A stretch of 64,000 nt of DNA, from contig CAVTJJ010000004.1 of the NCBI GenBank assembly GCA_963735035.1, positions 288,001 through 352,000 of the forward strand, in the 5' to 3' direction. How positions within the stretch are numbered: the stretch's first letter is position 1; each line of letters opens with the position of its first letter. The notes under the pieces are model-generated. The model did no database searches, was not told the origin of the DNA, and saw only the letters and a list, made by a program, of their open reading frames with translations. Below, one piece after another: positions 20,391 to 34,342 of the stretch. Source of the stretch: an uncultured candidate division Zixibacteria bacterium. Lineage in GTDB: Bacteria; Zixibacteria; MSB-5A5; GN15; FEB-12. The translations under genes and the position numbers were made by a program.

Positions 20391-21638
20391 CTACGCGCCG
20401 TACTTGTCGATGATCTCCTGCTTCGACTTGCCAAGGATGTCGTACTTCTTGCCGACCTTACGGAAAGCGTCGAGCGCTTTGTCGAGATGATGAATCTCGT
20501 GACCGGCGGAGATCTGCGTGCGGATACGCGCCTGGCCTTGCGGCACCACCGGGAAGAAGAAGCCGATCGCGTAGATGCCCTCGGCGAACAAATCGCGCGA
20601 GATATCCTGTGAGAGCTTGGCGTTGAACAACATCACCGGCACGATCGGGGTATCGCCCTCTTTCAGAACGAAGCCGGCCTCCTCGAGACCTTTCCGCCAA
20701 TAGGCGGTGTTCTTCTCGAGTTTGTCGCGTCGCTCGGTACTCTTGGACAGAATATCCAGCACCCGGATAACACCGGAAACCACTACCGGCGCAATAGTAT
20801 TCGAAAACAGGTATGGCCGCGCTCTCTGGCGGCACATCTCGACCAGTTCGCGGCGTCCTGACACGCAGCCGCCCGACGCTCCACCAAGCGCCTTGCCGAA
20901 AGTAGTCGTGATGACATCGATCTTGCCCACCACGCCGTATTTCTCGTGCGTGCCGCGGCCGGTCTTGCCGATGAATCCACTGGAGTGGGAATCGTCTACA
21001 AACAGCATGGCGTCGTACTTATCACACAGTTCCACCATCTTGTCCAACTGCGCCGTGTCGCCGTCCATCGAGAACACGCCGTCAGTGATAACCATGCGGA
21101 CTCTGCGTCCGGCGTGAAGCTGCAATTTCTCTTCGAGATGCTCCATGTTGGCATGTTTGAACGTATCCTGCTCGGCGCTGCACAACCGCATGCCGTCGAT
21201 AATCGACGCATGCACGAGCCGGTCGGCGATCATCATGTCGTCTTTGGTGAGAACGGCCTCGAAGATACCGGCGTTGGCGTCCATGCATGACGGGAACAGA
21301 ATTGTGTCTTCGGTGCCGAGGAAAGCGGTTACTTTGCGTTCCAACTCACGATGTATATCCTGCGTGCCGCAGATAAAGCGTACCGATGACATGCCGTAGC
21401 CACGGCTGTCGAGGCCTTCGTGCGCTGCTTTGAGTACCTCGGGATGGCTGGACATGCCGAGATAGTTGTTGGCGCACATGTTGATTACTTTCTTCGGCGC
21501 GGCGCCGGTCGGAAATTCGACTTCGATATCCGCCGCCTGCGACGAATGTATGTACCGTTCCTGTTTGAACAGGCCGGCGTCCTGAATCCCCTTAAGTTGA
21601 TCTTGATAAATTGTGCGAACCTTATCGCTGTAGCCCAT
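20391..21638 (-). CDS. kbl: 2-amino-3-ketobutyrate CoA ligase (glycine C-acetyltransferase)
   Basis: CANNYLG, MSSVRFICGTQ, DGVFSMDG, TFGKALGG PLP lysine, RQRARPYLFSN, ARIRTQ. Confidence 0.92.
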   Translation of the reverse strand: MGYSDKVRTIYQDQLKGIQDAGLFKQERYIHSSQAADIEVEFPTGAAPKKVINMCANNYLGMSSHPEVLKAAHEGLDSRGYGMSSVRFICGTQDIHRELERKVTAFLGTEDTILFPSCMDANAGIFEAVLTKDDMMIADRLVHASIIDGMRLCSAEQDTFKHANMEHLEEKLQLHAGRRVRMVITDGVFSMDGDTAQLDKMVELCDKYDAMLFVDDSHSSGFIGKTGRGTHEKYGVVGKIDVITTTFGKALGGASGGCVSGRRELVEMCRQRARPYLFSNTIAPVVVSGVIRVLDILSKSTERRDKLEKNTAYWRKGLEEAGFVLKEGDTPIVPVMLFNAKLSQDISRDLFAEGIYAIGFFFPVVPQGQARIRTQISAGHEIHHLDKALDAFRKVGKKYDILGKSKQEIIDKYGA

Positions 21639-21710
21639 ATTCGACTCCTAGGTTAGCTGCCACATCGCGAACCGGCCGAATCTTACCCGGCCGGTTAATC
21701 ACACCCGACG

Positions 21711-21956
21711 CTACTTGAGGAATTGCCGGACCAGCGCCACGATTTTGTTGACCGAATCAAATGCTTCGGGGGTGGCCTTCTCATCCGGAATGCTGATCTT
21801 GTACTTGTTCTCGAGGAACCGCTTCAGCGAAACCATGGAAAAAGAATCGACGATACCACCCGAGATCAGGGCCGTGTCGCAATCGATTTCTTCTTCTTCA
21901 TCCTCGAGATATTCGTTCTTTACATATTTCAGAACGGCTTGTTGCATTTCATCCAT
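21711..21956 (-). CDS. Acyl carrier protein
   Basis: 81 aa, acidic, GIVDSFSMV Ser motif. Confidence 0.9.
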   Translation of the reverse strand: MDEMQQAVLKYVKNEYLEDEEEEIDCDTALISGGIVDSFSMVSLKRFLENKYKISIPDEKATPEAFDSVNKIVALVRQFLK

Positions 21957-21982
21957 CGATACACCTGCTTCTATATTTGACG

Positions 21983-23686
21983 TTAATCATTTTCCAGTGT
22001 GGAAGTGTCGCCGATTTCCTCGCCCCATTCCTTGGCTCGCAACACTCGGCGCATGATCTTGCCGGAGCGGGTCTTGGGGAGCGACGGTACGTATTCAATC
22101 TCCTGCGGCATAGCCAGCGGGGAGAGTCTCTTGCGAATGAAGTTCATGATATCCAGTTCAAGATCGACACTCGCCTCAAAACCGGGCTTAAGTGTCACGA
22201 ACGCCTTCACCACTTCCATGTTGACTTCGTCCGGCTTGGCCACGACTGCCGATTCCGCCACTGACGGGTGTTCCAGCAGCGCCGATTCGACTTCGAACGG
22301 GCTGACCAGATGTCCGGCGGTGTTGATGATATCGTCATCGCGACCTGCGAACCAGAAGTAACCATCGGCGTCGATACTCGACCGGTCACCCGGCATGTAC
22401 CAGCCGTTCTTGAATTTAGCTTTGTAGGTAGCCTCGTTATTGCGATAGCCGCGCATCATCGCCGGCCATCCAGGTTGAAAGGCAATAAGGCCGATCCGCC
22501 CGGGATCAGTAATAGGTTCGTAGGTCTTGAGATCGAGCACGGTTGCCCCGATGCCGGGGAAGGCGCGCCCCATCGAACCCGGTTTCACTTTCATGCCGGG
22601 GAAATTCGTGATCATCATCGAGCCGGTCTCGGTCTGCCAATACGTATCATGGAACGGTAGGCCGAAGACACGCAGGGACCAATGCACCGCCTCGGCGTTG
22701 AGCGGCTCGCCCACACTGCATAGGTGGCGAAGTGATTTCATGTCGAACTTCTTGACGATCTCGTCACCGGCCTTCATCAAAGACCGGATTGCGGTCGGAG
22801 CCGAATACCAGACCGTCACACGATGCTTCTCAATGAATCGGTACCAGTTCTCCGCCGAGAATCCTACATCCTGCACGCATTGAGTGACGCCCATGGTGAA
22901 GGGTGCGATAATGCCGTACGATGTGCCCGTGACCCAGCCCGGATCGGCGGTGCACCAGTAGACGTCGTCGTCCTTCAGGTCAAGCACCCACTTCGCGGTC
23001 AGGAACTGTGATATGAGCGAGTAGTGTACGTGCTGTACGCCTTTCGGCTTACCGGTAGTGCCGGAGGTGTAGTGAATCACCGAGGGCGACTCGGCTTTGG
23101 TCGGATAGGCCGGGAAATTCTCAACCGGTTTGGCATCGGCGAGTGAGAAAGCAATCTCGCGATCTTTCAACTCTCTCTTGCCGTCGTGATCGACAATGAT
23201 GATGTGCTTGAGGAACGGCATTTGATCGAGAATGCGGCGCACTTTGCCGACATGCTTGCGCTGAGTCAATATGGCAGTTGCCTGAGCGTCTTCAAGGCGC
23301 ACGAAGAGCGAATCTTCACCGAAAGCCGAGAACAGCGGCTGTGCGACGGCGCCCATCTTCAGAATGCCGACAAAGCCCAGATACAGTTCCGGAATGCGGT
23401 CCATAAAAAGACAGACACGATCGCCCGGCTGGATGCCCAGATCGCGCAGATAGGCGGCGATAGTGTTGGTAGTGAGGCGAACATCGTTGTAAGTGTACCG
23501 CTTCTCTTCGGCGCCGGTACCTTCCCAGATAAGCGCCGGTTTGTCGGCTTTGCCCATCTGACAGACACGATCAGAGCAGTACCAGCCGATGTTGATGACA
23601 TCGCCCGCTTTGTAACCGAGTTCCTTTTCAGCGATATCCCAACTGAAATTGCGAGCCCGGTCTTCGTAGTTGCCAAAATTATTCAT
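21983..23686 (-). CDS. acsA: Acetate--CoA ligase-like enzyme (short AcsA type)
   Basis: YTSGTTGKPKG, WCTADPGWVTG, VGEPLN, DTYWQTETG, PKTRSGKIMRR. Confidence 0.88.
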   Translation of the reverse strand: MNNFGNYEDRARNFSWDIAEKELGYKAGDVINIGWYCSDRVCQMGKADKPALIWEGTGAEEKRYTYNDVRLTTNTIAAYLRDLGIQPGDRVCLFMDRIPELYLGFVGILKMGAVAQPLFSAFGEDSLFVRLEDAQATAILTQRKHVGKVRRILDQMPFLKHIIIVDHDGKRELKDREIAFSLADAKPVENFPAYPTKAESPSVIHYTSGTTGKPKGVQHVHYSLISQFLTAKWVLDLKDDDVYWCTADPGWVTGTSYGIIAPFTMGVTQCVQDVGFSAENWYRFIEKHRVTVWYSAPTAIRSLMKAGDEIVKKFDMKSLRHLCSVGEPLNAEAVHWSLRVFGLPFHDTYWQTETGSMMITNFPGMKVKPGSMGRAFPGIGATVLDLKTYEPITDPGRIGLIAFQPGWPAMMRGYRNNEATYKAKFKNGWYMPGDRSSIDADGYFWFAGRDDDIINTAGHLVSPFEVESALLEHPSVAESAVVAKPDEVNMEVVKAFVTLKPGFEASVDLELDIMNFIRKRLSPLAMPQEIEYVPSLPKTRSGKIMRRVLRAKEWGEEIGDTSTLEND

Positions 23687-23689
23687 CAG

Positions 23690-24070
23690 TTACTCTATTC
23701 CTTCAGGTTGCAGGGCAACCACGGCACAAGCGTATTGATCGGTGAATGACGACGAGACCAGATAACGGTCACTATCGACGCCACCTATCAGTTCGCTCAT
23801 TCGACCGCTCAGTCGAAGCCGGGTCGCACCTGAACGATTCATGACTTCTATATCTCTAAATCTGAGCCCTTCATGCAAACCAATTCCAGCCGCTTTTAGA
23901 AGAGCTTCCTTGACGGCCAGGATAGCGGCGAGGCGGGCATATCCTCGGCGCTTTGTCCGATACTCCGCCAGCTCACTATCGGTGAATATTCCCTCAAGGG
24001 TGCCGTCGGCGCGGTCAACCGCGCTTCTAATCCGGTCTACCGTGACTATGTCTATACCGAATGCTTGCAT
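23690..24070 (-). CDS. acpS: Holo-ACP synthase (AcpS-type phosphopantetheinyl transferase)
   Basis: GIDIVTVDRI, IFTDSE, AVKEALLKA motifs. Confidence 0.85.
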   Translation of the reverse strand: MQAFGIDIVTVDRIRSAVDRADGTLEGIFTDSELAEYRTKRRGYARLAAILAVKEALLKAAGIGLHEGLRFRDIEVMNRSGATRLRLSGRMSELIGGVDSDRYLVSSSFTDQYACAVVALQPEGIE

Positions 24071-24096
24071 GTCGTGGCGCTCCGTGATAACCGGCC

Positions 24097-25074
24097 TTAG
24101 CCGATCTTGCTCACCGTGGGCCCTACCCGGAGCTTGCGCGACAACACGTCGATCATGTCGCTGGTCATCCTGGCGAGATCGTACTCAGGTTTCCAGCCCC
24201 ACTCCTTGCGGGCGCAGCTATCATCCATTGAGTTCGGCCACGAATCAGCAATCGCCTGTCGCACCGGATCGACGTTGTAGTCGATCGTGAATTCTGGAAT
24301 ATGCTTGCGGATTTCATCGGCGAGAATCTTTGGGGTGAAGCTCATTGCTGTAACGTTGAACGAATTCCGATGTATCAGCTTCGTGCCATCAGCCTCCATC
24401 AGGTCGATCATGGCGCGAATGGCATCAGGCATGTACATCATATCGAGCCAGGTGTCGGGTCTGAGATAGCAGGTGTATTTCTTACTCTTGATAGCCTGAT
24501 AGAAGATGTCCACAGCGTAATCGGTGGTGCCGCCACCCGGTTCGGTTTCATACGAGATCAATCCGGGGAAGCGAACGCCCCGGGTATCGAGTCCGAACCG
24601 TTTGTGGTAATAGTCACACAGTAGTTCGCCGGCCACTTTGGTGACGCCGTAGATTGTGTCGGGCCGCTGTATTGTATCCTGAGGGGTCTTGTCCTGTGGA
24701 GTCGACTTTCCAAACGCGCCTATTGAGCTAGGAAAGAACAGCGAACACTTATGCTGCTGTGCCGCTTCGAGAAAATTGAACAGGCCGTTCATGTTGACCT
24801 GCCAGGCGGTGCCGGGGCGGGACTCGCCGGTGGCGGACAGGATCGCTCCCAGATGATAGATCGTATCGATATCATGAACCTGCATCACACGGGAGATATG
24901 ATGCGGCAGGGTGACGTCCAGAAATTCAAACGGGCCGGCATCGCGCAGCCGTACGTCGGTGGGCATGCGGATGTCGGTCGCGACTACTTTGTCATCACCA
25001 TATTTCTGTCTGAGTGCGGCGGTCAGTTCGGATCCGATCTGACCGAGAGCGCCGGTAACCAGAATCTGCTTCAT
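24097..25074 (-). CDS. tdh: SDR-type L-threonine 3-dehydrogenase
   Basis: TGALGQIG, LSATGE, PSSIGAFG, YGVTK, PGGGTTDYAV, LDMMYMPDA; start reassigned to ATG 25074. Confidence 0.88.
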   Translation of the reverse strand: MKQILVTGALGQIGSELTAALRQKYGDDKVVATDIRMPTDVRLRDAGPFEFLDVTLPHHISRVMQVHDIDTIYHLGAILSATGESRPGTAWQVNMNGLFNFLEAAQQHKCSLFFPSSIGAFGKSTPQDKTPQDTIQRPDTIYGVTKVAGELLCDYYHKRFGLDTRGVRFPGLISYETEPGGGTTDYAVDIFYQAIKSKKYTCYLRPDTWLDMMYMPDAIRAMIDLMEADGTKLIHRNSFNVTAMSFTPKILADEIRKHIPEFTIDYNVDPVRQAIADSWPNSMDDSCARKEWGWKPEYDLARMTSDMIDVLSRKLRVGPTVSKIG

Positions 25075-25256
25075 CTCAAAGGACCTCAATAGCTTACTGT
25101 TGCGGGCGCGAATCTGAAATATTTCGCCGCCCAAGCCGTCCACGTTGCCGGCCAGCTCGCTGGAAAATAAGGAACGGGCAGGAAAAATCAAGCGAATCCG
25201 CGCTATCAGACGCGATTCCGCACCAACATCTGTCTATGGGGAAGATCCGCTTAATA

Positions 25257-25385
25257 GTCATTGCGAGCGGAGATGGCTCGCCGTCAGGCGTGGCATCGTA
25301 GCGCGGCAATCTCAATGTTGTTGCACCAGTATCATTTGAGATCGCCACGTCTCGCCCGCGAAGCGCGGCCGAGACTCGCGATGAC
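25257..25385 (+). repeat. RPE-like palindromic element
   Basis: Same core as 483-601 and 17341-17469. Confidence 0.9.
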
Positions 25386-25407
25386 GGGGAGTGAACTTCT
25401 ACAACAA

Positions 25408-26073
25408 TTAGTCCGGTGGTCGTATGGTAGCGATAGCGGCCAACAACTGTTCTTTGTTGGCGATAGATATCTTGCGTCCTCTGATTGGTAGATCAGGCAG
25501 ATCTCTGGCGTAGCGCCTTAGTTTGACCACTGGCATCGCTGCAAGCTGTTCCCACGTTGGCTGTTCGGAAGAGATCTCTGAAGTGTGGGCAGGAATGCGG
25601 ACGGGTGGAGTGGCGATTCGAATTGGCGCCTCTACTATCGCGGGTTCTTTGTGACTAACGGGAGCCGGTGCTTTTGGTTTGGTAGGCTTTCTGGCAGGCT
25701 TGGTTGGCGATGCGACACGAACCGCGGCGGCCTTCTCGGGAGCCGGCTTCTTGAGAATCGGGGCGGAAGACTCGTCGGGACTGTAGCGGTCGACAAAACG
25801 CGGATAAGGCATGATCGCACTGACTTCGTCGTCGGATTTTGGGATCACGTGCATCGACACCAGTTCGCCGGCGACATAGGCAGCGCGTGCTCCAGCTTCA
25901 ACTGCTCCCTGGACCGCCGACCATTCACCCTCAATCTTGACCGTCATGCGGCCGGACGCTCCCTGCTCCGCCGAGACAATCACTACCTCACCCAAATCCG
26001 ATGCGGCGCGGGTCGCCTTGATGGCGCCTTCAATGCCGCTTGTTTCTACTAGTCCTAACGCTGGTCGTGGCAT
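25408..26073 (-). CDS. Bacterial microcompartment shell (BMC-H) protein with Pro/Ala/Lys linker and C-terminal helical extension
   Basis: ALGLVET.G, VKIEGEWSAVQGAVEAG, ELVSMHVIP; C-terminal MPVVKLRRYAR..ISIANKEQLL; start reassigned to ATG 26073. Confidence 0.85.
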   Translation of the reverse strand: MPRPALGLVETSGIEGAIKATRAASDLGEVVIVSAEQGASGRMTVKIEGEWSAVQGAVEAGARAAYVAGELVSMHVIPKSDDEVSAIMPYPRFVDRYSPDESSAPILKKPAPEKAAAVRVASPTKPARKPTKPKAPAPVSHKEPAIVEAPIRIATPPVRIPAHTSEISSEQPTWEQLAAMPVVKLRRYARDLPDLPIRGRKISIANKEQLLAAIATIRPPD

Positions 26074-26139
26074 GATCCTGAACCTACAAAATGCCGTGCT
26101 CCGATTCAACCAATAAAGTGATCGACAACTTGTGGAACA

Positions 26140-26242
26140 TAAATGAGCGTCGCCCGTGCATCCCCTCGAGCACGGGCGACTGGGCACCAAGAAAAAGAGG
26201 ACCTACCGAGCGCCTTGTCAGCGCCAGGAGTAAGAATGACGC
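26140..26242 (-). ncRNA. Candidate sigma54-dependent sRNA (~100 nt), or structured leader of the BMC gene
   Basis: Starts at the predicted +1 of the sigma54 promoter; CU-rich stretches; 11-bp GC hairpin 26149-26159/26170-26180. Confidence 0.45.
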
Positions 26243-26252
26243 AACGGTATTT

Positions 26253-26268
26253 AGCAAGGGCTGTGCCA
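26253..26268 (-). promoter_or_regulatory. Sigma54 (-24/-12) promoter
   Basis: TGGCAC-AGCCC-TTGCT on the minus strand, exact consensus spacing. Confidence 0.85.
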
Positions 26269-26299
26269 TCGAGTTGGTCGCATTACGTATGGTATTGTG

Positions 26300-26372
26300 T
26301 TTCAACAAGTTGGGGCGTGTGACGGGTAGTATAGGATGGGTGTGGCCGGTTTTGGTTCGTATGAACATACGA
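26300..26372. promoter_or_regulatory. IHF-like site (26300-26312) and palindromic UAS candidate (26357-26372)
   Basis: TTTCAACAAGTTG (one mismatch to WATCAANNNNTTR); TCGTATG-AA-CATACGA about 115-130 bp upstream of the predicted +1. Confidence 0.55.
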
Positions 26373-26383
26373 CCGACGGACAT

Positions 26384-26424
26384 AAAAAAGGCGGTAAGTG
26401 CTTGACCGGGGGACACTTACCGCC
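26384..26424 (-). terminator. Rho-independent terminator of the peptide/EBP operon
   Basis: 11-bp stem GGCGGTAAGTG/CACTTACCGCC followed by T6 on the minus strand. Confidence 0.85.
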
Positions 26425-26487
26425 ACCAAGGAGTGTTCTTTATAATCGTACGGTGTCACGAGACAATTCTTGAGAATCGTCCTGTGA

Positions 26488-28761
26488 CTAGTTGGGCATG
26501 CCGCCCTCCGCGCTGATCCCGTACCGTTTCAGCTTGGTTCTCACGGTCGCTTCATGGACGCCGAGGATGCGAGCCGCCTCGCTCTTGTTACCGCCGGCCG
26601 CCAGAAGCGCTTCGGTAATCAACTGCCGCTCGAATTGTTCGACACGTTCAAACAGGCCACCGGCATTGTCGGCCGCGTGGTCGGGAGCCAGAATCGACCG
26701 GGCTACTTCGTGCCACTGACCTTCAGCCACCGACTGTGACATTATTGAAAGCCGATTGACGACATTGTCTAGCTCGCGAACGTTGCCGGGCCAATCATGA
26801 CCAACGAACTGCTGCACCAATTCCGGCGCCGGTTTCTGTCCCGGCTTGAGCAGCCCACGATGAATCATGAAGTGCTCCAGCAGCAGAGGGATGTCTTCCT
26901 TGCGCGAGCGCAGTGACGGAAGATGCAGGGTGATCCCGCTCAGTCGGTAGTAGAGGTCCCGACGGAACGTGCCCTGTTCCACCATCGCTTCGAGATCGCG
27001 GTTGGTGGCCGCCACCACGATGATATCAATCTCGACCTGCTTGGTGCTTCCCAGCGGTGTTACGCGCCGTGATTCCAGTACGCCGAGCAGTTTCGCCTGG
27101 AGCGACAACGGCATTTCGCCGATCTCGTCGAACAAGAAAACGCCGCCGTTAGCCGATTCGAGCAGACCTTTCTTATTGTGGTCCGCTCCGGTGAAGGCGC
27201 CTCTGTGGTAACCGAACAGTTCCGATTCGAGCAGCGTCTCGGGCACCGAGGCGCAGTTGATCGCCACGTACGGTCCACTGGGTCGAACCTGCGAGTGATA
27301 GTACCTCGCCAGGTGATCCTTGCCGACACCCGTCTCGCCCGTAATAAGCACCGGCAAATCGGAGCGATTCAAGAGCGGCAGTTGCTTCTTGATTCGCTCG
27401 ATAATCGGAGACTGAGTGAGATATTCATGCTCGCCGGGGGTCGGAGAGGATTCGTGCGTCTGCTGTGTGACCTTAGCCAGACGGCCGATTTCGTTGGCCA
27501 GCCGGCTGACCTCGTCCTGTTTCGACTTGATCCGACACCGGGAGTAGAATTCTTCGGCCCTGAACAGATAAGTCAGGCGTTGTTGGTCGGAGAACGCTTC
27601 GGAGGCTCCGGCCGCAATCAACGCTTCGGCCTTGGCCCATCGAACACCCGATTCGGCCAGAATGTCGATAGCCTTCTGGAACAACTGACGGGCTTCAACC
27701 GCCTGTCGTTCACTCACCGGACGGGCTTCACCCATAGCCACCTGAGCCATGATCTTCTTGAGCGCGCCGAGTTCGAGTTTCTCGTCGGAGCGTTCCATGA
27801 TAACCGTGGCTCGCGCCGCCATCTTCTGAGCTTGACGATAGTCGCCGGTGCGCACGGCCAGTTCGGCCAGATGACGCATTACCCGGCCGGACAGCGAGGT
27901 GCCTGAACCAAGAAGTTCCGCTTTCTCGAAAGCGCGTCTCAGGGTCAGGGCCGACTGCGCGAAGTCGGCAATGCGATAGTTCAGCTCACCCAGATAAGTC
28001 AGGTAACTGACTTCATCACGCGGCGAGTTGACCACCGTGAGCAAAACGCCGGCCTGGTTGAATTCCGCCTCGGCCTTGTCATACTCTGCCTGCTGCAGGT
28101 AGACGTATCCGAGAGATAGATGGGCGCGAAGCGTATTGAGATCGTCACCCAGTTCACCGGACATCTGGATATTGATCCGGAGATGTTTCTCCGCTTCAAT
28201 GAAATCACCCATGAACATATATATGCGGCCGATGTTGCCCATCATGAAAGCCAGCTTGCGCGGGTTATCGAGCCGTCGGGCGATTTCGACCGCATCCATC
28301 AGCACCGCCAGAGCGTTACGGTAGTCGGTCTGTCGGAGATACAGTCCGGCCAGACGATTCAGTGCCCGGCTCTGACCTTCGGGACAATCATATCTTCTGA
28401 AAATCGATTCCGCGTCGCGGTACGCCTTCTGTGCTTCAACAAGTTCACCCCTGTCTCGCAGGATACCTCCCAGGGTAACGAAGACCTCGGCCAGCATCAA
28501 CGAGTCGCCGGCGCGGGTAACGATAGCCTGGGCAGTCCGTGCCACCTTCAAGGCAGCTGTCAGATTGGTGAGGGAAGCATAAGCCCGAGCCGCCAGATGC
28601 AGGATTTCTCCTACTTCGGCTGCTCCGGCTTCAGTGTCTATCTGGCTCTGTTGAGCCTCATAGCACTGCACGGCGCCGACAAAGTCTTGCCTGGCCAGCA
28701 TCGCCCGCATGTGGGCGGCCGCCGAAACGCAGAACGTCTTGTCTACGTCGTGTTGGCTCAT
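26488..28761 (-). CDS. Sigma54-dependent enhancer-binding protein with N-terminal TPR array and Fis-type HTH
   Basis: About 430 aa of TPR-like helices, GETGVGKD, ESELFG..GAFTGA, FDEIGE, FRRDLYYRL, WPGNVREL, GNKSEAARILG. Confidence 0.95.
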   Translation of the reverse strand: MSQHDVDKTFCVSAAAHMRAMLARQDFVGAVQCYEAQQSQIDTEAGAAEVGEILHLAARAYASLTNLTAALKVARTAQAIVTRAGDSLMLAEVFVTLGGILRDRGELVEAQKAYRDAESIFRRYDCPEGQSRALNRLAGLYLRQTDYRNALAVLMDAVEIARRLDNPRKLAFMMGNIGRIYMFMGDFIEAEKHLRINIQMSGELGDDLNTLRAHLSLGYVYLQQAEYDKAEAEFNQAGVLLTVVNSPRDEVSYLTYLGELNYRIADFAQSALTLRRAFEKAELLGSGTSLSGRVMRHLAELAVRTGDYRQAQKMAARATVIMERSDEKLELGALKKIMAQVAMGEARPVSERQAVEARQLFQKAIDILAESGVRWAKAEALIAAGASEAFSDQQRLTYLFRAEEFYSRCRIKSKQDEVSRLANEIGRLAKVTQQTHESSPTPGEHEYLTQSPIIERIKKQLPLLNRSDLPVLITGETGVGKDHLARYYHSQVRPSGPYVAINCASVPETLLESELFGYHRGAFTGADHNKKGLLESANGGVFLFDEIGEMPLSLQAKLLGVLESRRVTPLGSTKQVEIDIIVVAATNRDLEAMVEQGTFRRDLYYRLSGITLHLPSLRSRKEDIPLLLEHFMIHRGLLKPGQKPAPELVQQFVGHDWPGNVRELDNVVNRLSIMSQSVAEGQWHEVARSILAPDHAADNAGGLFERVEQFERQLITEALLAAGGNKSEAARILGVHEATVRTKLKRYGISAEGGMPN

Positions 28762-29123
28762 TACTTCTCCCTTCTAAGAGGCAGGAAATGCTTCCGGCTC
28801 GAGATAACCGCGGATGAACTCTTGTCCGCCACGTCGGTATTTGACAAAGTCGCCGATTGAGGTGTGCGCGCCGGACTGATCAAAGTGGCGATAAGCACAT
28901 CAATTATTGGGATTCCGGTCAGAACCGTGACTCTGAAAGTCTTGGTGCCGCCGCCGCCGATGACTTCGTCATCGCCCCAGGGATGATCGCCATCCACGAC
29001 CGTACCGCCGCCGGTGCCGGGTTGGTCTAAGCCCTCGCCCCGCATGATGCCTGCATTGAGAGGCATAGCTGAGGCGACTACTAGTACCAGTATCAGGACC
29101 AGTACCGAGTAAACGTGTTTCAT
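28761..29123 (-). CDS. Small secreted protein with DHPWGDDE motif (candidate signalling-peptide precursor)
   Basis: AAGGAG RBS, Sec signal peptide, Gly-flanked DHPWGDDE, TAATG overlap with the EBP start. Confidence 0.75.
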   Translation of the reverse strand: MKHVYSVLVLILVLVVASAMPLNAGIMRGEGLDQPGTGGGTVVDGDHPWGDDEVIGGGGTKTFRVTVLTGIPIIDVLIATLISPARTPQSATLSNTDVADKSSSAVISSRKHFLPLRREK

Positions 29124-29241
29124 GACACACTCCTTGGTATGAGTAGTTAGTGTAACTTTTTCTTCAAGTCGTCCGCCGAATGCAGTCAGTCACTGGTGGC
29201 GGCCGTGAGGGGATGGGTAAAACGTCATTCCGGTCACACTT

Positions 29242-29270
29242 AGGATAGCTTATTGCAAAGCGCTTGTCAA
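29242..29270 (-). promoter_or_regulatory. Sigma70 promoter for the peptide/EBP operon
   Basis: TTGACA-N17-TATCCT on the minus strand. Confidence 0.7.
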
Positions 29271-29425
29271 TCAAAATGTTAAGGCTCGGAAGTTTGTTGT
29301 TAGCGGATGCCGTGCGCCGAAAATAGCAAGTCGCAGGATATCGGTGATCAGCGCTACGATTATATATCCTTAGAACAGATCAAAGTAGAACCCTTTGTAG
29401 ATGTTCAAAGAGTTCATACCGGAAA

Positions 29426-30367
29426 CTAAGAATGAATCAGAACCAATTGTACACAATCCGGTTCATCTTTGGGGTCACAATAGTGAAACTCGACCCTTAC
29501 AAATGCGCCGACAGGCCGGTTGTCCTTGATCTTGGGGCTAAACACCCAACTAGGTAAGACTGCCGTAAGGTTCTTCGCAAAACCGTACTCTCGTGGCTCT
29601 TCCTTGATGACAAGGTACTGGCAAGTATTGACTACCTCGTTTGAGTCGACAAAGAACCGCAACCGGGCGCTCTTACCATCCTTCATGACAAAGTCGAGGA
29701 AGAATCCGGACGAGTCACTCAGAGGCTGTGATACCGCGGCATATGGCCTCATGGCGCCCGTCGAATCGACGTACATAAGTACTTCGACGAATCCTCCCCG
29801 GTTATTCTCCAAGGCCATAAAGGGAATTTTCGGCGGAGTCTTGGCAATGACCTCGATTTCCCGATTCACCACCCTCCTGGGCAAGGCGTCGACATCATCA
29901 GGCAAGAAGTCCGCAGTCTCGGGAGAGAACTCGCCAGACTCGGTATCGATATCGATTTGCGAATAGGACAAGTTCGTATCCACATTGATTCGGGCTTGTA
30001 AGTGAGGAATTACCTTTGACGGTTTCACTTTCGCCAGCATCGGAACATCGGGAATGATCGTGTACCCCCTGAATCCCGCGAAACCCTTATGCTGTTTCTC
30101 ATACGGATTAAGTCCGTTTGACTGACGGGCTGCTGTGAAAGCGCCATCGTCTGGCACAGCTACTTGGACAGTCAGGTCAGGTTGCGCACTCTTAGACACA
30201 ACCTCGTCGCGGAGTTGTAGCGGCCCAAGATACTTGATACCTACTGCAACCACGAGCGCAAGCCCGGTTACTATCCCCAGCGCCATAAGCATGTTCCGCT
30301 GGTATTTCTCCTTCAGTTCGAACCCAATGGCAGAAAACGAATTGTTCTGCAAGTCAAGTGTCTCCAA
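29426..30367 (-). CDS. TonB-like membrane-anchored protein
   Basis: GFELKEKYQRN plus TM helix; PPKIPFMALEN..GFVEVLMYVD..G; WVFSPKIKDNRPV resemble a TonB C-domain with an insertion. Confidence 0.65.
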   Translation of the reverse strand: METLDLQNNSFSAIGFELKEKYQRNMLMALGIVTGLALVVAVGIKYLGPLQLRDEVVSKSAQPDLTVQVAVPDDGAFTAARQSNGLNPYEKQHKGFAGFRGYTIIPDVPMLAKVKPSKVIPHLQARINVDTNLSYSQIDIDTESGEFSPETADFLPDDVDALPRRVVNREIEVIAKTPPKIPFMALENNRGGFVEVLMYVDSTGAMRPYAAVSQPLSDSSGFFLDFVMKDGKSARLRFFVDSNEVVNTCQYLVIKEEPREYGFAKNLTAVLPSWVFSPKIKDNRPVGAFVRVEFHYCDPKDEPDCVQLVLIHS

Positions 30368-30443
30368 TTAGCGGAGTATTCTACAGGGGTCCGTACAAAT
30401 CGCGTACGAACCCCCATTGACTCAACCCACGATCAGCAGGTTG

Positions 30444-30644
30444 CTACCACCATTCGTTGACGGTAATAGTCAAGAACTCTTGCATATCTACTGCTGCACA
30501 CCGTGTTCCCCACCAGGCGCAGTCAAACGCGGTGATGCATGTCCTGTAACGATCACAGGCCACCTGGAACGCACCTGCCGACGCCGGGATCATCGCGAGC
30601 ACGAACGCCAGCACCAGCGTCATCGCAACAATTTTTTTCAGCAC
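30444..30644 (-). CDS. Small secreted peptide with four Cys and WW motifs
   Basis: AAAGGAG RBS, signal peptide ending ASA/AGA, C-x5-C-x5-C-x6-C, hairpin downstream near 30385-30415. Confidence 0.7.
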   Translation of the reverse strand: MLKKIVAMTLVLAFVLAMIPASAGAFQVACDRYRTCITAFDCAWWGTRCAAVDMQEFLTITVNEWW

Positions 30645-30755
30645 TTGGTCATCTCCTTTCTTTGTTAGCGGTGAAGGGTTGTCCTACCGATAGTGTGAGG
30701 CCAACGGTAGGTATTTCTCCATGGTATGTCATAATTACTGTGATGTTAATTCCAC

Positions 30756-31316
30756 CTATCCGATCCTGGGCATGTTCTTGCTGAGGTACGCGTACCAACT
30801 TACAATCTCATCCCGCAAGACTGTCACTTGAAAATCCGTTGGATTGATAACGAACCGAACCAAATGAAAATTGCCAGATTGCTCACAACCACACTCCAGG
30901 CGCGCATCAAGGAAGATAAGCACCAGGGCCGAATCAAGGGGCAGCGCGGAGTCGGATATTTGTAGATCAGGGCGAAGGGCCAGCATTTCGAATCCGGCCG
31001 GAGCATTATTTGACTTCCTGAGCCCGATTGCCATCAAGGAATCACTCACTCGCCTAATACAATTATTGATTTGAAGGGCGAAAACCTCATTGTAGCTGAC
31101 CTGTGAATACTGAGGCATGGCCGGCGATAGCGCTACTGGGTTCACAGTCGTATGCGCCGAAAGATACTCGGCTTCAAACGCCCGATAGTACCTCGGACCC
31201 GCATCTATCAGGCCTATCATGAGCAAGAGGCCCACTGTAACAAAGAGTTTCCCCCCAAACCCTGATCGCCAAAATGACAACAGGTCCCGCAAAAAACGAC
31301 GGGCAATTGAGAACAT
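30756..31316 (-). CDS. Hypothetical membrane-anchored protein
   Basis: GGAGG RBS, one N-terminal TM helix. Confidence 0.6.
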   Translation of the reverse strand: MFSIARRFLRDLLSFWRSGFGGKLFVTVGLLLMIGLIDAGPRYYRAFEAEYLSAHTTVNPVALSPAMPQYSQVSYNEVFALQINNCIRRVSDSLMAIGLRKSNNAPAGFEMLALRPDLQISDSALPLDSALVLIFLDARLECGCEQSGNFHLVRFVINPTDFQVTVLRDEIVSWYAYLSKNMPRIG

Positions 31317-31318
31317 GG

Positions 31319-32191
31319 TTACCTCCCTTTCATTCCAATTTGCTCACTGGCTGCCCGTTCTAGTTCTTCGATCTGCTTTCTGGCGGCCCACTGGGATACC
31401 ACCGTCATCTGGGACTGATCGACTACCTCAAGACAAACGAGCAAACCCGACTCAGTCACATTGAGCACTCTCTTTCGGCCAATGTTGGTTCGCTGAACGC
31501 CCGGAGTGGGCAGACACGGGTAAAATCCTTCGTCGAGAACTATTTGCCTGACAGTCGAACCGAACTGCTCAGCGGTCTGCTCGACCAGACTCCTGGCGCA
31601 CTCCTTGTCACGATTCATCAATTGTATCGTAACGAGATTGGTTGGTAATTCTTTCGGTGACTCCACCTGAAGAAGACTCGAGGTGTCAACGTAGACAAAC
31701 GTCCCGGAATCCAAGTTGATCCGGAACACAGCGGTATCTTCACCGAGAATGACGCGTAAAGGGAATGGCTTAGTGGGAAACCAAATTCGCGCTTCGTGAG
31801 CAACTCTGCTACGAGACCGCAGCCTTAGAATCACTAGTGTGTCCGACTCGCTATGCTCGAAGCCCATCATAGAATAGTGACTCAGTATGTCGAAAGTCCA
31901 CTTTCCGGTGTAACCCATACCTTCATCTTGCGGTTCGCAATCCTGATAGAACAAGAATGCAAAAGGCCTGATATTCCTCGGCGGCTTTCTGGATGGGTTA
32001 GGTTCAGGGCCCACTGGGGGTGGTTCTTGTTTGTCCACATCCCAACCGCCCTGAGCTTGAGTGAACGGCGCCAACATGGATAGTGCCAAGACAGCCATAG
32101 CGGCTGTTCGGATAAGTGTGTTTGTATTCGGCGCGACGCGCCTGCGAATTCCGCCCATATCTGCCCTGCTTTCAAGAGTGTGTACCTCCAC
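31319..32191 (-). CDS. Hypothetical exported protein (true start may be downstream)
   Basis: 290-aa ORF with a signal-like segment ending TQA followed by a Pro-rich stretch. Confidence 0.6.
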   Translation of the reverse strand: MEVHTLESRADMGGIRRRVAPNTNTLIRTAAMAVLALSMLAPFTQAQGGWDVDKQEPPPVGPEPNPSRKPPRNIRPFAFLFYQDCEPQDEGMGYTGKWTFDILSHYSMMGFEHSESDTLVILRLRSRSRVAHEARIWFPTKPFPLRVILGEDTAVFRINLDSGTFVYVDTSSLLQVESPKELPTNLVTIQLMNRDKECARSLVEQTAEQFGSTVRQIVLDEGFYPCLPTPGVQRTNIGRKRVLNVTESGLLVCLEVVDQSQMTVVSQWAARKQIEELERAASEQIGMKGR

Positions 32192-32224
32192 CAGCGTGGC
32201 TGGTGGAGGCGAAACGAGGAGCGA

Positions 32225-32302
32225 CTATTCGTCGCCGCCCCACGGGTGATCGAGCAGGAAGAGGCCGATAACGACCCCAAACTTGAGCATCCAGTAGAGC
32301 AT
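32225..32302 (-). CDS. 25-aa peptide MLYWMLKFGVVIGLFLLDHPWGGDE
   Basis: GGAGG RBS at 32307-32311, hydrophobic N-region, C-terminal motif shared with 28761-29123. Confidence 0.6.
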   Translation of the reverse strand: MLYWMLKFGVVIGLFLLDHPWGGDE

Positions 32303-32581
32303 GAATCCTCCATGCGGTGAAGGGTTGCGGTTGCCCCGTCGCAATTTGTGAGGGATTGCGCGGGTGTGCTTGCAACATAAGAGTATGCACCTCTCGTATG
32401 CAGGCTCCCTCGGCTCCGCACAGTGCGACAATTCCACACAGGAAACGAACCGATGTTCGGTTCTGTCACCCGATCCCTAGCGAGAAGAGCCCACTCCGTC
32501 TATACCAACTTATTAAATCAAACCCCGGCGCCTTTCAAGAGAAACCTACCTCCTGGCGCCATCATTGTTGATTCCGTTCTA

Positions 32582-32611
32582 ACACTATGCGGGGGGGGGG
32601 GATTTTGTCAA
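32582..32611 (-). promoter_or_regulatory. Sigma70 promoter with a C11 homopolymer in the spacer
   Basis: TTGACA-N16-CATAGT or -N18-TAGTGT; G11 tract at 32591-32601 on the plus strand. Confidence 0.5.
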
Positions 32612-32659
32612 GCACTTTTTTGCAAAATCATAATGTTTTGTGGTCAGACTCACAGCATA

Positions 32660-32749
32660 GAGCTTGAGATTGCCGCGCTTCGCTGTCCCGCCTGACGGCG
32701 GGCCATCTCCGCTCGCAATGACGATTAGACAAGCTTCTTCAACATGCCC
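32660..32749 (-). repeat. Half copy of the RPE/MITE element
   Basis: gagattgccgcg...ctcgcaatgacgattagac...cttcttcaacatgccc. Confidence 0.8.
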
Positions 32750-32804
32750 AAGCGGTAGGGCACACAGAGGGCTTCCTTCACTAATCCCCCCGATACCCGC
32801 CGCT

Positions 32805-33431
32805 CTACTGCAAACTCACCGGCAGGCGACTGTATATCTCATCCAGGAATGATTTTTCGAAACGATCAAGCGCCTCAAGACCTTCAGGCGTGTCTTTGGC
32901 GACAAAGCGGATAAACGTCAGATGTCGCGGACTGAGCGTCAGCGACGTCAGCATCTCAAACAGCTTGAGCTGATAATCATTCGACGTCTCGCCCCACGGA
33001 GTAACGTACCAGAAGTCCATCACGTGTCCGGTCTGCTTGTATCTCAAGTGCAGGCGTTTGATGTTCAGCGTGCGGTTGTGAAAAGCGATCGTGTGCGGTT
33101 CCGAACCTTCGACAATCCAACCCGATGCCGGCAGGCAATTCAACGGTGAGTGAGGGCCACCGCGCGGATCGGAGAAACTTCCGAGAAAGAGATTGACCCG
33201 GTTGCCGTCGAGATCGATAAAATTCGTGTTGATGATATGGTCCGGCTTGAGCAGGTCGATCACCCCCGGCGCGACTACTTCCGTCTGTCCGGTCCAGCCG
33301 TCGCGGGACATCGGAAAACCGTCCCACCCGGCAGACTTGAGTGCGGTCGGGGTGCGATACTTGATCACCCATCCGACCAGCGACGCCACTATTAGAATGG
33401 TCGCGATTATGAAGAACGTTTTCCGGGCCAT
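32805..33431 (-). CDS. epsI: EpsI family (exosortase-associated) protein
   Basis: FPMSRDGWTG, PHSPLNCLPASGW, TFIRF; follows exosortase. Confidence 0.85.
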   Translation of the reverse strand: MARKTFFIIATILIVASLVGWVIKYRTPTALKSAGWDGFPMSRDGWTGQTEVVAPGVIDLLKPDHIINTNFIDLDGNRVNLFLGSFSDPRGGPHSPLNCLPASGWIVEGSEPHTIAFHNRTLNIKRLHLRYKQTGHVMDFWYVTPWGETSNDYQLKLFEMLTSLTLSPRHLTFIRFVAKDTPEGLEALDRFEKSFLDEIYSRLPVSLQ

Positions 33432-34342
33432 TTCAGAATCGCTCCCAGGATCATCATCATTATAAGGGCCGAAATAAACACCAGCAGGCCGGATACTTCG
33501 TGCAGGAACGTATCCGCCAGGTCTCTGCTAACAGTATAGGCACCGATGGCCGTCACCAGAATTCGGAACACGTTCGCGGCGATGGCTATCGGGATCATGG
33601 CCAGGGTCAAGAGAATCGCCCGAACTTTTCCGGGCATATAGAGCCAGGAATAGAGCGACCCGAGGGCCAGAAGGGTCACGAGACTTCTAAGTCCGCTGCA
33701 GGCTTCAACTACCTCGAGCGAGTAGCCGGGAAGGTGGATGATATTTCCCTGGCGGATAGCCGGCATTCCAAGTAACTGCAGCAAGGAAGTGGTTGCTTCG
33801 GTGGACAGGAACTGCATCGGCAGAGTCGCCTGGTAGTAGATCACCGCCGGCACCGGCACCATGAACAGCAGGAAGAAGAAGGCGAACCAGATTTTGCGGA
33901 AATTTGTTTTGCCCAGATAGGCCAGTCCGATTCCGGTGATTTGAAGCAGGAGCGACATCCGGGTGATGAAGAACTCCGAGGCGGCCATACCCAGGACCAG
34001 GCCGACACTTCCCACAATGACCATGGCAACACCGAAGCGGCTGCTCTCGGCCGGAAAGACGAGCTCCTTGTGGCGGCGATAGGCGATCCAGATAGCAATA
34101 GGCACGACCAGAAAGCCGTGCGAATAATTGCCGTCCTGAAGCCAGTCCTGGATCAGGTCGTACCAGACATGAAAATTGAGCAGTGACGTGAGCGCGATCA
34201 GGGCGTACGGGTACTTGTGCCGGACTATATGATTTTTTATGGCGCTCCAGTTCTGGGTCATCGGCAATAGTACACCTGTCTTTGGTCTATACGCTCTGGT
34301 TATCGCCATCTTTGGGCCTCGGGGCAAGGTTTTATTTATCAA
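33407..34342 (-). CDS. xrt: Exosortase (EpsH family); start may be at a downstream Met
   Basis: NYSHGFLV, VVEACSGLRS (catalytic Cys), NVFRI (Arg), FLHE (His). Confidence 0.92.
   Translation of the reverse strand: MINKTLPRGPKMAITRAYRPKTGVLLPMTQNWSAIKNHIVRHKYPYALIALTSLLNFHVWYDLIQDWLQDGNYSHGFLVVPIAIWIAYRRHKELVFPAESSRFGVAMVIVGSVGLVLGMAASEFFITRMSLLLQITGIGLAYLGKTNFRKIWFAFFFLLFMVPVPAVIYYQATLPMQFLSTEATTSLLQLLGMPAIRQGNIIHLPGYSLEVVEACSGLRSLVTLLALGSLYSWLYMPGKVRAILLTLAMIPIAIAANVFRILVTAIGAYTVSRDLADTFLHEVSGLLVFISALIMMMILGAILKWPGKRSS

Follow-up and report, generated by a model that had tools for sequence, protein, structure and literature searches.

A stretch of 64,000 nucleotides (nt) from the genome of an uncultured candidate division Zixibacteria bacterium, hereafter the window, carries a compact cassette that looks like an undescribed peptide-sensing circuit: a gene for a small exported protein, an overlapping gene for a sigma-54 activator with an array of tetratricopeptide repeats (TPR) as its sensor and, behind both, a sigma-54 promoter followed by a predicted small RNA. 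All parts of the cassette lie on the minus strand. The genome comprises 3.6 Mb at 96.9% completeness and encodes BamA, in agreement with the diderm host assumed by an earlier analysis made without database searches (the sequence-only reading). The two genes are preceded by a sigma-70-type promoter (TTGACA-17-TATCCT, 29242..29270; 10 of 12 matches in a consensus scan). The first gene (28761..29123) encodes a protein of 120 amino acids (aa), the motif codons of which occupy positions 28965-28988, and the second gene (26488..28761) encodes the 757-aa bacterial enhancer-binding protein. The TAA stop codon of the small gene and the ATG of the activator gene share base 28761 (TAATG), and these coordinates confirm the described overlap between a secreted 120-aa protein with a Gly-flanked DHPWGDDE motif and the start of the activator. 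The operon ends in a hairpin, GGCGGTAAGTG...CACTTACCGCC, followed by T6 (26384..26424), the sequence of which is kept among orthologs; as RNA, this hairpin with its U6 run folds well (z = -3.5, with 0 of 200 shuffles folding equally well). A consensus terminator scan flagged neither this terminator nor that of the small RNA because, by reading, the operon loop is over the limit of the scan and the T-run of the small RNA is insufficient; folding supports the operon terminator. The sigma-54 promoter (TGGCAC-N5-TTGCT, 26253..26268) lies downstream of the hairpin and its U6 run, as originally proposed.

The architecture of the 757-aa protein is that of a sigma-54 activator with an unusual input domain. 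Pfam and NCBIfam assign only TPR families to residues 1 to about 430, and the TPR superhelix spans residues 1 to about 435 with 22 helices. Further downstream, Pfam recognizes Sigma54_activat (PF00158, residues 449-612, 1.5e-60), AAA_lid_14 and HTH_8 (residues 707-747), and the protein ends in a Fis-type helix-turn-helix (HTH). The translation includes GAFTGA and Walker motifs (GAFTGA, GETGVGKD, FLFDEIGE). The features expected of a bacterial enhancer-binding protein are found together: a sigma-54 interaction domain, HTH_8, enhancers, a -24/-12 promoter and, in the same genome, rpoN (425.8 bits, above cut-off). REC, GAF and PAS domains gave no Pfam match in the 757-aa protein, and TPR families alone stand ahead of the AAA+ domain, which upholds the view that the TPR array is the only recognizable sensor. 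By sequence profile, the TPR domain is related to LGN/Pins (3e-18), kinesin light chain (3e-10) and, behind these two, to Rap chains (E 5e-8 to 8e-3, RapJ at 5e-8). A fold search returned LGN at a template modelling (TM) score of 0.7-0.8, normalized to the target, and no receptor of the RRNPP class of peptide-signalling systems, to which Rap belongs, is among the top Foldseek matches listed for the domain. A search of the genome contigs with the TPR domain yielded just three weak, generic TPR matches. We know of no enhancer-binding protein with a peptide-binding TPR array as its sensor, and no pairing of an enhancer-binding protein that has a TPR sensor with a small secreted protein was described in the literature searched.

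By inspection, the product of the first gene opens with a signal peptide of the Sec type (MKH, then 16 hydrophobic residues and LNA|G) and holds the sequence G-DHPWGDDE-V, followed by GGGG. Its layout comprises the signal peptide, an acidic and Gly-containing linker, the invariant H47-x-W49-G50, a semi-conserved hydrophobic segment (TGxxxxD) and a basic tail. No family in Pfam or NCBIfam describes the 120-aa protein and a protein atlas gave no usable match for it, returning generic TPR clusters only for the sensor. A homologous-protein search detected four relatives, in all of which the motif is kept. Among 39 aligned small proteins of the orthologous group, here termed type A, mean column identity is 23% and M1, H47, W49 and G50 are the only invariant columns; the conservation of the motif in orthologs, on which the sequence-only reading depended, is therefore observed. 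In a six-frame translation of the genome, HPWG occurs 15 times, four times as (D/E)HPWG(D/G)D, and the codons of the motif copies differ synonymously. This count and the synonymous differences show that the motif is one of the protein sequence and exceeds chance. The type-A alignment further reveals R-x-P-[Y/W/F] as another semi-conserved element, located 10-20 residues ahead of HPW where the mature N-terminus is predicted. This element is missing from the 120-aa protein of the present genome, which is also among only three of the 39 proteins without Gly at position 51.

The two genes recur together throughout the lineage. A type-A activator ortholog (about 750-830 aa, TPR part) is present in 40/40 nearest genomes, which represent four families of one order, and a paralog of about 980 aa (type B) is also widespread among these genomes. 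An activator match at E <= 1e-25 is present in 160 of 201 genomes sampled across the phylum. Upstream of the activator, an exported protein of the H-x-W or P-W-acidic type was found in 81/81 loci from three paralog or ortholog groups, with the signal peptides judged by inspection. All 41 type-A loci encode a small protein of 109-136 aa, signal peptide included, with the motif D-H-[P/T/N]-W-G and a stop-to-start gap of -19 to +30 nt. The small proteins of the 20 type-B loci (79-152 aa; present in 20/20) show x-P-W-[D/E/N] right after the signal peptide in 19 cases and GPFDVD in one, and those of other orders of the class (92-124 aa; 20/20 loci) contain Trp in 17 cases and HPEQ or RPEQ in three. 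The second cassette of the present genome (C4:1141173-1144505) belongs to type B and consists of a 97-aa signal-peptide protein, in which SGEHPWDSD abuts the signal peptide, and a 979-aa TPR-sigma54 activator. Homologous activators are thus flanked by small open reading frames (ORFs) with the motif, as had been anticipated, and there is little doubt from this distribution that the cassette is a real unit.

The conserved unit does not extend to the genes next to it in the window. An exosortase gene and an EpsI gene (33407-34342 and 32805-33431) are located 3.7 kb upstream on the same strand, and PEP-CTERM systems include a sigma-54 response regulator and a TPR protein. The cassette could therefore be viewed as a PrsR/PrsT-like fusion that regulates the adjacent exosortase and PEP-CTERM exopolysaccharide locus, with the HPW proteins as exosortase cargo. 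This explanation is hardly credible, as the activator reaches 257.6 bits, below the TIGR02915 cut-off of 502.6 bits, an exosortase is found near the cassette in only one other of 20 neighbourhoods, where it is arranged differently, and the linkage that would define a PrsR/PrsT relationship is consequently not conserved. Moreover, the small proteins in the type-A alignment carry no PEP-CTERM-type C-terminus, the second cassette of the genome is not near an exosortase, and near-perfect copies of the enhancers described below are absent from the exosortase locus. The exosortase, EpsI and four proteins without family assignment (29426-32191) are not conserved neighbours of the cassette.

Structure prediction and co-variation connect the two gene products. 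The TPR domain was co-folded with the mature small protein (residues 25-120), using an alignment of 39 sequences for each. The median score was 0.76 (runs 0.79, 0.76 and 0.76), the best of three controls scored 0.01 and the controls ranged from 0.00 to 0.01. Of 157 solved complexes, 116 reach the mark applied to such scores, compared with 2 of 215 mismatched pairs; these counts are only approximate with self-made alignments. The runs share at least 32% of contacts, and the partner has a predicted local distance difference test (pLDDT) value of at least 36. On the small protein, the confident interface is restricted to residues 45-54 (GDHPWGDDEV) and the remainder is modelled as disordered, and a fit of the motif into the sensor, proposed earlier for the isolated peptide, is hence recovered when the entire mature protein is offered. 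On the receptor side, the interface is the concave groove, with the invariant residues N176 and R179 and the near-invariant residues N135, R212, A213 and Y219; the contact columns are conserved above the average of the domain (0.81 vs 0.61). Residue 216 of the TPR domain contacts P48 of the motif in the model, with an expected error of 1.6 Å. In type A, this residue is Ser in 32/32 loci with H-P-W and Ala (five) or His (two) in 7/7 loci with H-T-W or H-N-W. On a tree built without the two columns, residue 216 and motif residue 48 change in the same rows; the best tree requires four changes, and supported branches force at least two of them. The 36 pairs of type B and of other orders follow a similar pattern, with Ala216 in 3/3 H-T-W loci and, among the 33 loci with Pro, 32 Ser and one Asp. 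The proposed receptor-peptide co-variation is consequently detected in the form of groove residue 216 tracking motif residue 48, and the structural model and this co-variation make it likely that the motif binds the TPR groove directly.

This type of recognition has precedents among the closest solved relatives by sequence profile and fold, kinesin light chain and LGN/Pins (NuMA/Inscuteable), which bind extended peptides in a concave TPR groove. The ligands of kinesin light chain present a Trp flanked by acidic residues, and the Trp of the (D/E)HPW(G/D)(D/E) motif is likewise flanked by acidic residues. The recognition of tryptophan-acidic cargo motifs by kinesin light chain has been described (PMC5450233; bioRxiv 10.1101/2020.06.17.157255). 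In contrast to the cassette, both relatives are eukaryotic cytoskeletal adaptors that have no transcription output, and the likeness concerns the reading of the groove and not the system. The same relationship also feeds an alternative without direct contact, in which the small protein is merely co-transcribed or is cargo of the system, the TPR array senses another protein or serves as a scaffold, and the co-fold reflects a memory effect. TPR arrays bind many partners, and the co-fold may have passed because solved complexes of TPR domains with peptides resemble it, given that the closest solved relatives are peptide-bound LGN and kinesin light chain. Furthermore, the partner has a low pLDDT (36-38) and is otherwise modelled as disordered, and the co-variation between residues 216 and 48 in type A amounts to few independent events (two on supported branches, four on the best tree), with which a sign test cannot reach significance. 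On the other hand, the interface selected from 96 residues is precisely the only invariant stretch of the small protein, the control co-folds remain near zero, residue 216 follows residue 48 without exception in type A (42 of 42 contrasts of Thr or Asn with Pro) and in all three Thr loci elsewhere, and the pair was retained in all 81 loci through at least three rounds of duplication or divergence. A lack of contact is therefore considered clearly improbable, and direct binding of the motif remains the preferred explanation.

The promoter and the enhancers indicate where the activator may act. The pattern TGGCA[CT]N5TTGC[ATC] has 16 matches in the genome, and the promoter of the cassette is the only one in the window. 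Among 18 orthologous loci, 15 contain a sigma-54 promoter (at least 6/7) located 186-473 nt past the stop codon of the activator gene, and none contains such a promoter upstream of the small gene. In other orders, a sigma-54-like promoter follows the activator in 8 of 19 loci. The enhancer consensus is TTCGTA-N6-TACGAA, and sites with at most two mismatches were counted. The proximal palindrome (GTCGTA-TGTTCA-TACGAA in this genome, 26356..26373, no strand assigned) is positioned 141 +/- 5 nt ahead of the RNA start in 35/35 loci, and a second enhancer is found 232 +/- 6 nt ahead of the RNA start in 25 of 35 orthologous loci. The distal copy of the present genome is degenerate by sequence reading (CTCGTG-N6-TACGAT, 26445..26462, no strand assigned) and exceeds the threshold of two mismatches. 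Only three sites with at most one mismatch exist genome-wide, one of them at the cassette, and this rarity of the enhancer fits an activator with essentially one target.

A predicted small RNA of about 105 nt, identified as a covariance-model match at 26137..26240, starts behind the sigma-54 promoter. It is composed of a 5' GUCAUU, a short hairpin 1, a single-stranded C/U-rich stretch (UCCUCUUUUUCUUGGUG; UCCUCUUUUCUUUGG), a GC-rich hairpin 2 with a conserved GAGGGG loop and a U-rich tail. The covariance model detects one copy in this genome and matches in 69 of 150 sampled genomes, all within the order of the window (51/54 in family f1, 10/10 in f3, 3/3 in f2 and 4/15 in f4; none in other families). 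A comparison of coordinates places 61 of the 69 matches directly downstream of a type-A activator on the same strand; among the remaining eight, four have the partner at a contig end or on separate contigs (one of these genomes has no activator match) and four are weak matches elsewhere. In an alignment of 41 copies, which was fitted to the covariance model, base pairing is formed in 96.3% of the cells, and compensatory changes are seen in 15 of 16 pairs; none of 500 shuffles was as good, and slid controls were 34-52% paired. Rfam gave no match at E <= 1 over positions 25300-33000. Judged on its sequence, the element has the general traits of a trans-acting small RNA, namely its own promoter, a covarying structure, a terminator, a conserved single-stranded seed and independence from the next gene. 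The analogy to Qrr RNAs driven by LuxO and sigma-54 that had been suggested for this locus is apt, since the sigma-54 promoter is conserved and drives a predicted small RNA, which is very probably the main output of the cassette. A genome-wide duplex scan for targets of the RNA produced no interpretable ranking. Pairing of the seed with the ribosome-binding site (RBS) of the small gene was also considered and was dropped, as the seed does not follow a change of the RBS in locus L023. Behind the TPR activators of five loci from other orders (L166, L170, L175, L177 and L178), a C/U-rich stretch (e.g. CCUCCUUCC) and a GC-rich hairpin, unrelated in sequence, come after a sigma-54-like promoter; these elements are possibly analogous small RNAs.

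The element could instead represent the 5' leader or an attenuator of the downstream BMC-domain gene and its operon, and not a free small RNA. A BMC-domain gene follows in 11 of 13 other neighbourhoods of family f1 according to BLAST and in one more according to ORF reading. In addition, the U-tract of the present copy is weak and interrupted (UCAUUUAUGUU), which makes read-through into the BMC gene possible and, for a leader, likely. The RNA is nevertheless conserved irrespective of the following gene, be it the BMC-domain gene in this family or one of several unrelated genes (L029, L031, L033, L035, L041 and L043), its 3' end is formed in most genomes by a GC-rich hairpin and a U-run, and neither the distance nor the sequence up to the next start codon is conserved. 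A role exclusively as a leader is thus very unlikely, and the two readings are compatible and not exclusive.

A further RNA element appears to act within the operon itself. The small gene has an extended ribosome-binding region, ACCAAGGAGTGT (ACCAAGGAGUGU), at 29127..29138, and the 3' untranslated region (3'UTR) of the activator gene contains its perfect complement, ACACTCCTTGGT (ACACUCCUUGGU), at 26425..26436. This anti-RBS element is single-stranded and located immediately 5' of the terminator stem (both sites are read in the direction of transcription, 26436-26425 against 29138-29127). A perfect complement of 8-13 nt between RBS and 3'UTR exists in 28 of 37 loci, and in 28 of 37 it beats every control window taken from the coding sequence of the same locus. 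In L023, L075 and L082, changes on both sides preserve the pairing. The anti-RBS is read as a putative translational feedback on the small protein and the coupled activator, which may operate in cis or via a 3'-end fragment. The pairing of a 3'UTR with the ribosome site of the first gene of its operon offers a clean, co-varying case of operon-level RNA feedback.

These elements can be arranged into a circuit. Transcription from the sigma-70 promoter would provide the small exported protein together with the translationally coupled, cytoplasmic sigma-54 activator, and the acidic H-x-W-G motif of the former would be the ligand of the concave TPR groove of the latter. The small protein would be exported and cleaved to a short peptide, which would be taken up again into the cytoplasm; candidate importers are oligopeptide transporters of the OPT family, as the genome encodes four OPT, one PTR2 and one CstA protein. 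In this manner, the TPR domain might read the level of external or self-produced peptide, following a logic similar to that of RRNPP systems. Peptide occupancy would switch the AAA+ ring bound at the two TTCGTA-N6-TACGAA enhancers, in a direction that may be activating or inhibitory, and one sigma-54 promoter would be opened. Its only nearby product, the small RNA with the C/U-rich, anti-Shine-Dalgarno-like seed, presumably controls the translation of target mRNAs as a Qrr-like output, and the anti-RBS in the 3'UTR would cap the production of both proteins. Of this arrangement, sequence comparison establishes the cassette, the motif, the promoter, the enhancers, the structure of the RNA and the pairing of RBS with anti-RBS; binding of the motif in the groove has the support of a model and of co-variation, and export, cleavage, re-import, the direction of the switch and the targets of the RNA are inferred. 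In sum, a probability of roughly 35% is assigned to the reading that uncultured diderms signal, from cell to cell or in a secrete-and-sense mode, by encoded and exported tryptophan-acidic peptides that are read by a cytoplasmic TPR-sigma54 activator, with a code of its own for each pair (Pro48/Ser216 vs Thr48/Ala216) and one small RNA as the outlet. The quorum-sensing-like circuit of the sequence-only reading is retained in part, with regard to the conserved pair, the invariant motif, the co-fold, the co-variation and the sigma-54-driven RNA, whereas the mini-ORF on which it also drew is not conserved, and neither is the exosortase neighbourhood.

The route of the ligand is the least certain step of this circuit. 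In 81/81 loci the motif is located behind a signal peptide, although its predicted binding site is the groove of an activator that is DNA-bound in the cytoplasm, which leaves two routes: the return of a processed peptide to the cytoplasm or the sensing of the precursor prior to its export. Secretion, cleavage and re-import are tentatively favoured, at a little under even odds, because the motif sits behind a Sec signal peptide, because matched variants of motif and groove occur in paralogous pairs, as is the case for signal channels, and because the motif is embedded in disordered acidic sequence and extra mini-ORFs of the genome (see below) consist only of a hydrophobic leader and the consensus motif. 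Alternatively, the activator might bind the still-cytoplasmic precursor through its groove, with translational coupling keeping the two proteins in proportion, and Sec export would remove the ligand, creating a readout of export capacity or of the state of the envelope, with the RNA adjusting envelope or secreted proteins. This mode rests on the same evidence of direct binding and is topologically the simplest, as it needs neither a protease nor an importer. It would agree with the tight coupling of the genes (gaps of -19 to +30 nt), with the position of the type-B motif directly at the signal-peptide cleavage site, at which binding and export could compete, with the anti-Shine-Dalgarno-like seed of the small RNA, with the failure to detect an Opp binding protein in the genome and with the rest of the small protein, which is conserved enough for a periplasmic role of its own. 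However, a canonical Sec signal peptide normally leads to fast export and leaves little cytoplasmic ligand, the flanks of the motif are very acidic, Gly-rich and disordered, as in an extracellular linear signal, the paralog-specific motif variants matched to their receptors suggest a multi-channel specificity code, which is more natural for signals, and the extra mini-ORFs are just a hydrophobic leader plus the motif. Sensing of the precursor is for these reasons regarded as rather unlikely, although it has to be taken seriously. A regulator controlled by a small partner protein that changes its location is known from FlgM-sigma28 and PspA-PspF, in the second of which the partner holds a sigma-54 activator, and this similarity bears on the precursor-sensing mode. 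The cassette differs from both in that the partner has a general Sec signal peptide and no dedicated apparatus, and in that the docking site is the N-terminal TPR sensor and not the AAA+ domain.

Besides the doubts about binding raised above, several observations weigh against the peptide-signalling circuit. A search for an Opp-type binding protein (PF00496) was negative in this genome, which is 96.9% complete, and neither a transporter nor a protease is among the conserved neighbours of the cassette. The small proteins, with 100-135 aa, exceed typical pheromone precursors, and their second semi-conserved hydrophobic segment and basic tail are left unexplained by a peptide model. Their conserved motif is N-proximal, and the active peptide is C-terminal in most RRNPP precursors. 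With respect to the output, none of the 20 type-B loci has a sigma-54 promoter within 6 kb, so that a nearby small RNA is not a general output. Hfq was likewise not found in the genome at its given completeness. Finally, the small RNA of this genome, in addition to its interrupted U-tract, is unremarkable when folded alone (z = -1.98; 9 of 200 shuffles equal).

Overall, the system resembles an RRNPP pair that has been connected to an output of the LuxO-Qrr or NtrC-NrsZ type. RRNPP(A) pairs of Bacillota and of their phages and plasmids (Rap-Phr, NprR-NprX, PlcR-PapR, PrgX, Rgg-SHP and AimR-AimP) share with the cassette a cytoplasmic TPR-array receptor encoded beside a small gene for a signal-peptide precursor, a short linear motif, here predicted to face conserved Asn and Arg residues of the TPR groove, co-varying specificity residues of receptor and peptide, and several paralogous pairs per genome; Rap proteins are, in addition, weak sequence-profile relatives of the TPR sensor. 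RRNPP has been described as a system of Bacillota/Firmicutes (PMC10075063, PMC9765709). The present host is a diderm outside Bacillota, and its effector part is an AAA+ sigma-54 domain with HTH_8 and not an XRE-type HTH or a phosphatase. Further differences are the precursor gene, which is here upstream, translationally coupled and 100-135 aa in length with the motif near the N-terminus, the importers, as an Opp binding protein was not found and four OPT proteins, PTR2 and CstA are present instead, and the best structural relatives, which are LGN/Pins. On the output side, CbrB-CrcZ represents an arrangement in which the gene for an enhancer-binding protein lies beside a sigma-54-driven RNA. 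LuxO-Qrr, NtrC-NrsZ and CbrB-CrcZ resemble the cassette in that the activator gene is next to the sigma-54 promoter of a terminator-ended regulatory RNA of about 100 nt, which is apparently the only or main target of the activator. NrsZ is encoded in the intergenic region just after ntrC with an RpoN promoter (PMC4253122), and Qrr RNAs are activated by enhancer-binding proteins (PMC10162802). LuxO, NtrC and CbrB are, in contrast, response regulators switched by phosphorylation, whereas the present activator has a TPR sensor and no receiver domain, and its RNA differs from Qrr and the known sigma-54-dependent small RNAs in that no Rfam match was obtained and Hfq was not found in the genome.

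If the proposed circuit is correct, pheromone signalling of the RRNPP type would have been invented independently outside Bacillota, combined with a Qrr-like output and buffered by feedback from the 3'UTR to the RBS. Peptide communication would then reach into lineages that are diderm and largely uncultured, and sigma-54 control would gain a new class of input. The parts of the cassette (ligand motif, receptor groove, enhancer, promoter and RNA) are also compact and apparently orthogonal, with a specificity rule that two point mutations would suffice to test.

Additional HPW motifs and several neighbouring genes of this genome fall outside the conserved system. The second ORF with the motif, noted 3 kb upstream in the sequence-only reading, does exist as an open frame that ends in DHPWGGDE (32225-32437), but it does not belong to the conserved cassette. 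This reading frame probably corresponds to a 25-aa mini-ORF, MLYWMLKFGVVIGLFLLDHPWGGDE (32225..32302, minus strand), which starts at the ATG at 32302 with a strong Shine-Dalgarno sequence, GGAGG, five bases upstream. This mini-ORF is genome-specific, with the motif as its sole tie to the cassette: it is confined to two leader copies in this genome that are nearly identical, and was not found upstream of the homologs of the 290-aa protein in G002, G014, G033 and G036, nor at the third paralog in this genome. The leader of about 470 nt (window 32150-32640, minus strand; C4:878397-878867) contains a near-consensus sigma-70 promoter in addition to the mini-ORF and is 91.8% identical between the paralogous loci; the genes behind the two leaders are just 52-82% identical per 50-nt window. 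No Rfam match was obtained for the leader and it was not found in relatives. Its similarity may be due either to gene conversion or to strong selection on the leader. A mini-ORF of 14 aa, MNFTEVTEHPWGDD, with GGAG upstream, is located at C3:~126428-126472, just ahead of a gene for a 622-aa signal-peptide protein. It possibly arose by chance, as nothing nearby ties this C3 site to the cassette.

The four proteins without family assignment (29426-32191, minus strand) have lengths of 313, 66, 186 and 290 aa and, by inspection, signal peptides or N-terminal hydrophobic segments; the 66-aa protein is rich in Cys and Trp. A diverged second copy of this cluster is present on the same contig at C4:878826-882453, and a third copy of the 290-aa gene at C4:1051749-1052510. 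The exosortase is XrtA-like (184 bits vs a cut-off of 208) and is accompanied by the separate EpsI gene (32805-34342 for both, minus strand). A tblastn search detected no other exosortase in the genome, and on the plus strand the exosortase is followed by polysaccharide genes. On the other side of the cassette, the BMC-domain gene (25408-26073, minus strand) is likewise the only one found in the genome by tblastn. Its product contains the BMC domain, a Pro/Lys-rich linker and a conserved C-terminal segment of about 50 aa (MPVVKLRRYAR...GRKISIANKEQLL), which we take to resemble an HeH/Rho_N-type motif. In G006 and G011 (L028 and L030), the gene that follows the BMC gene resembles an EutN/CcmL vertex protein. 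Downstream of the BMC gene in the window (20391-25191, minus strand), the encoded proteins are a member of the NAD-dependent epimerase/dehydratase family (SDR) of uncertain specificity, a holo-ACP synthase, an acyl carrier protein, an acetate-CoA ligase (745.9 bits) and a glycine C-acetyltransferase (564.8 bits), the latter two both above cut-off. This gene set partly recurs behind the cassette in relatives.

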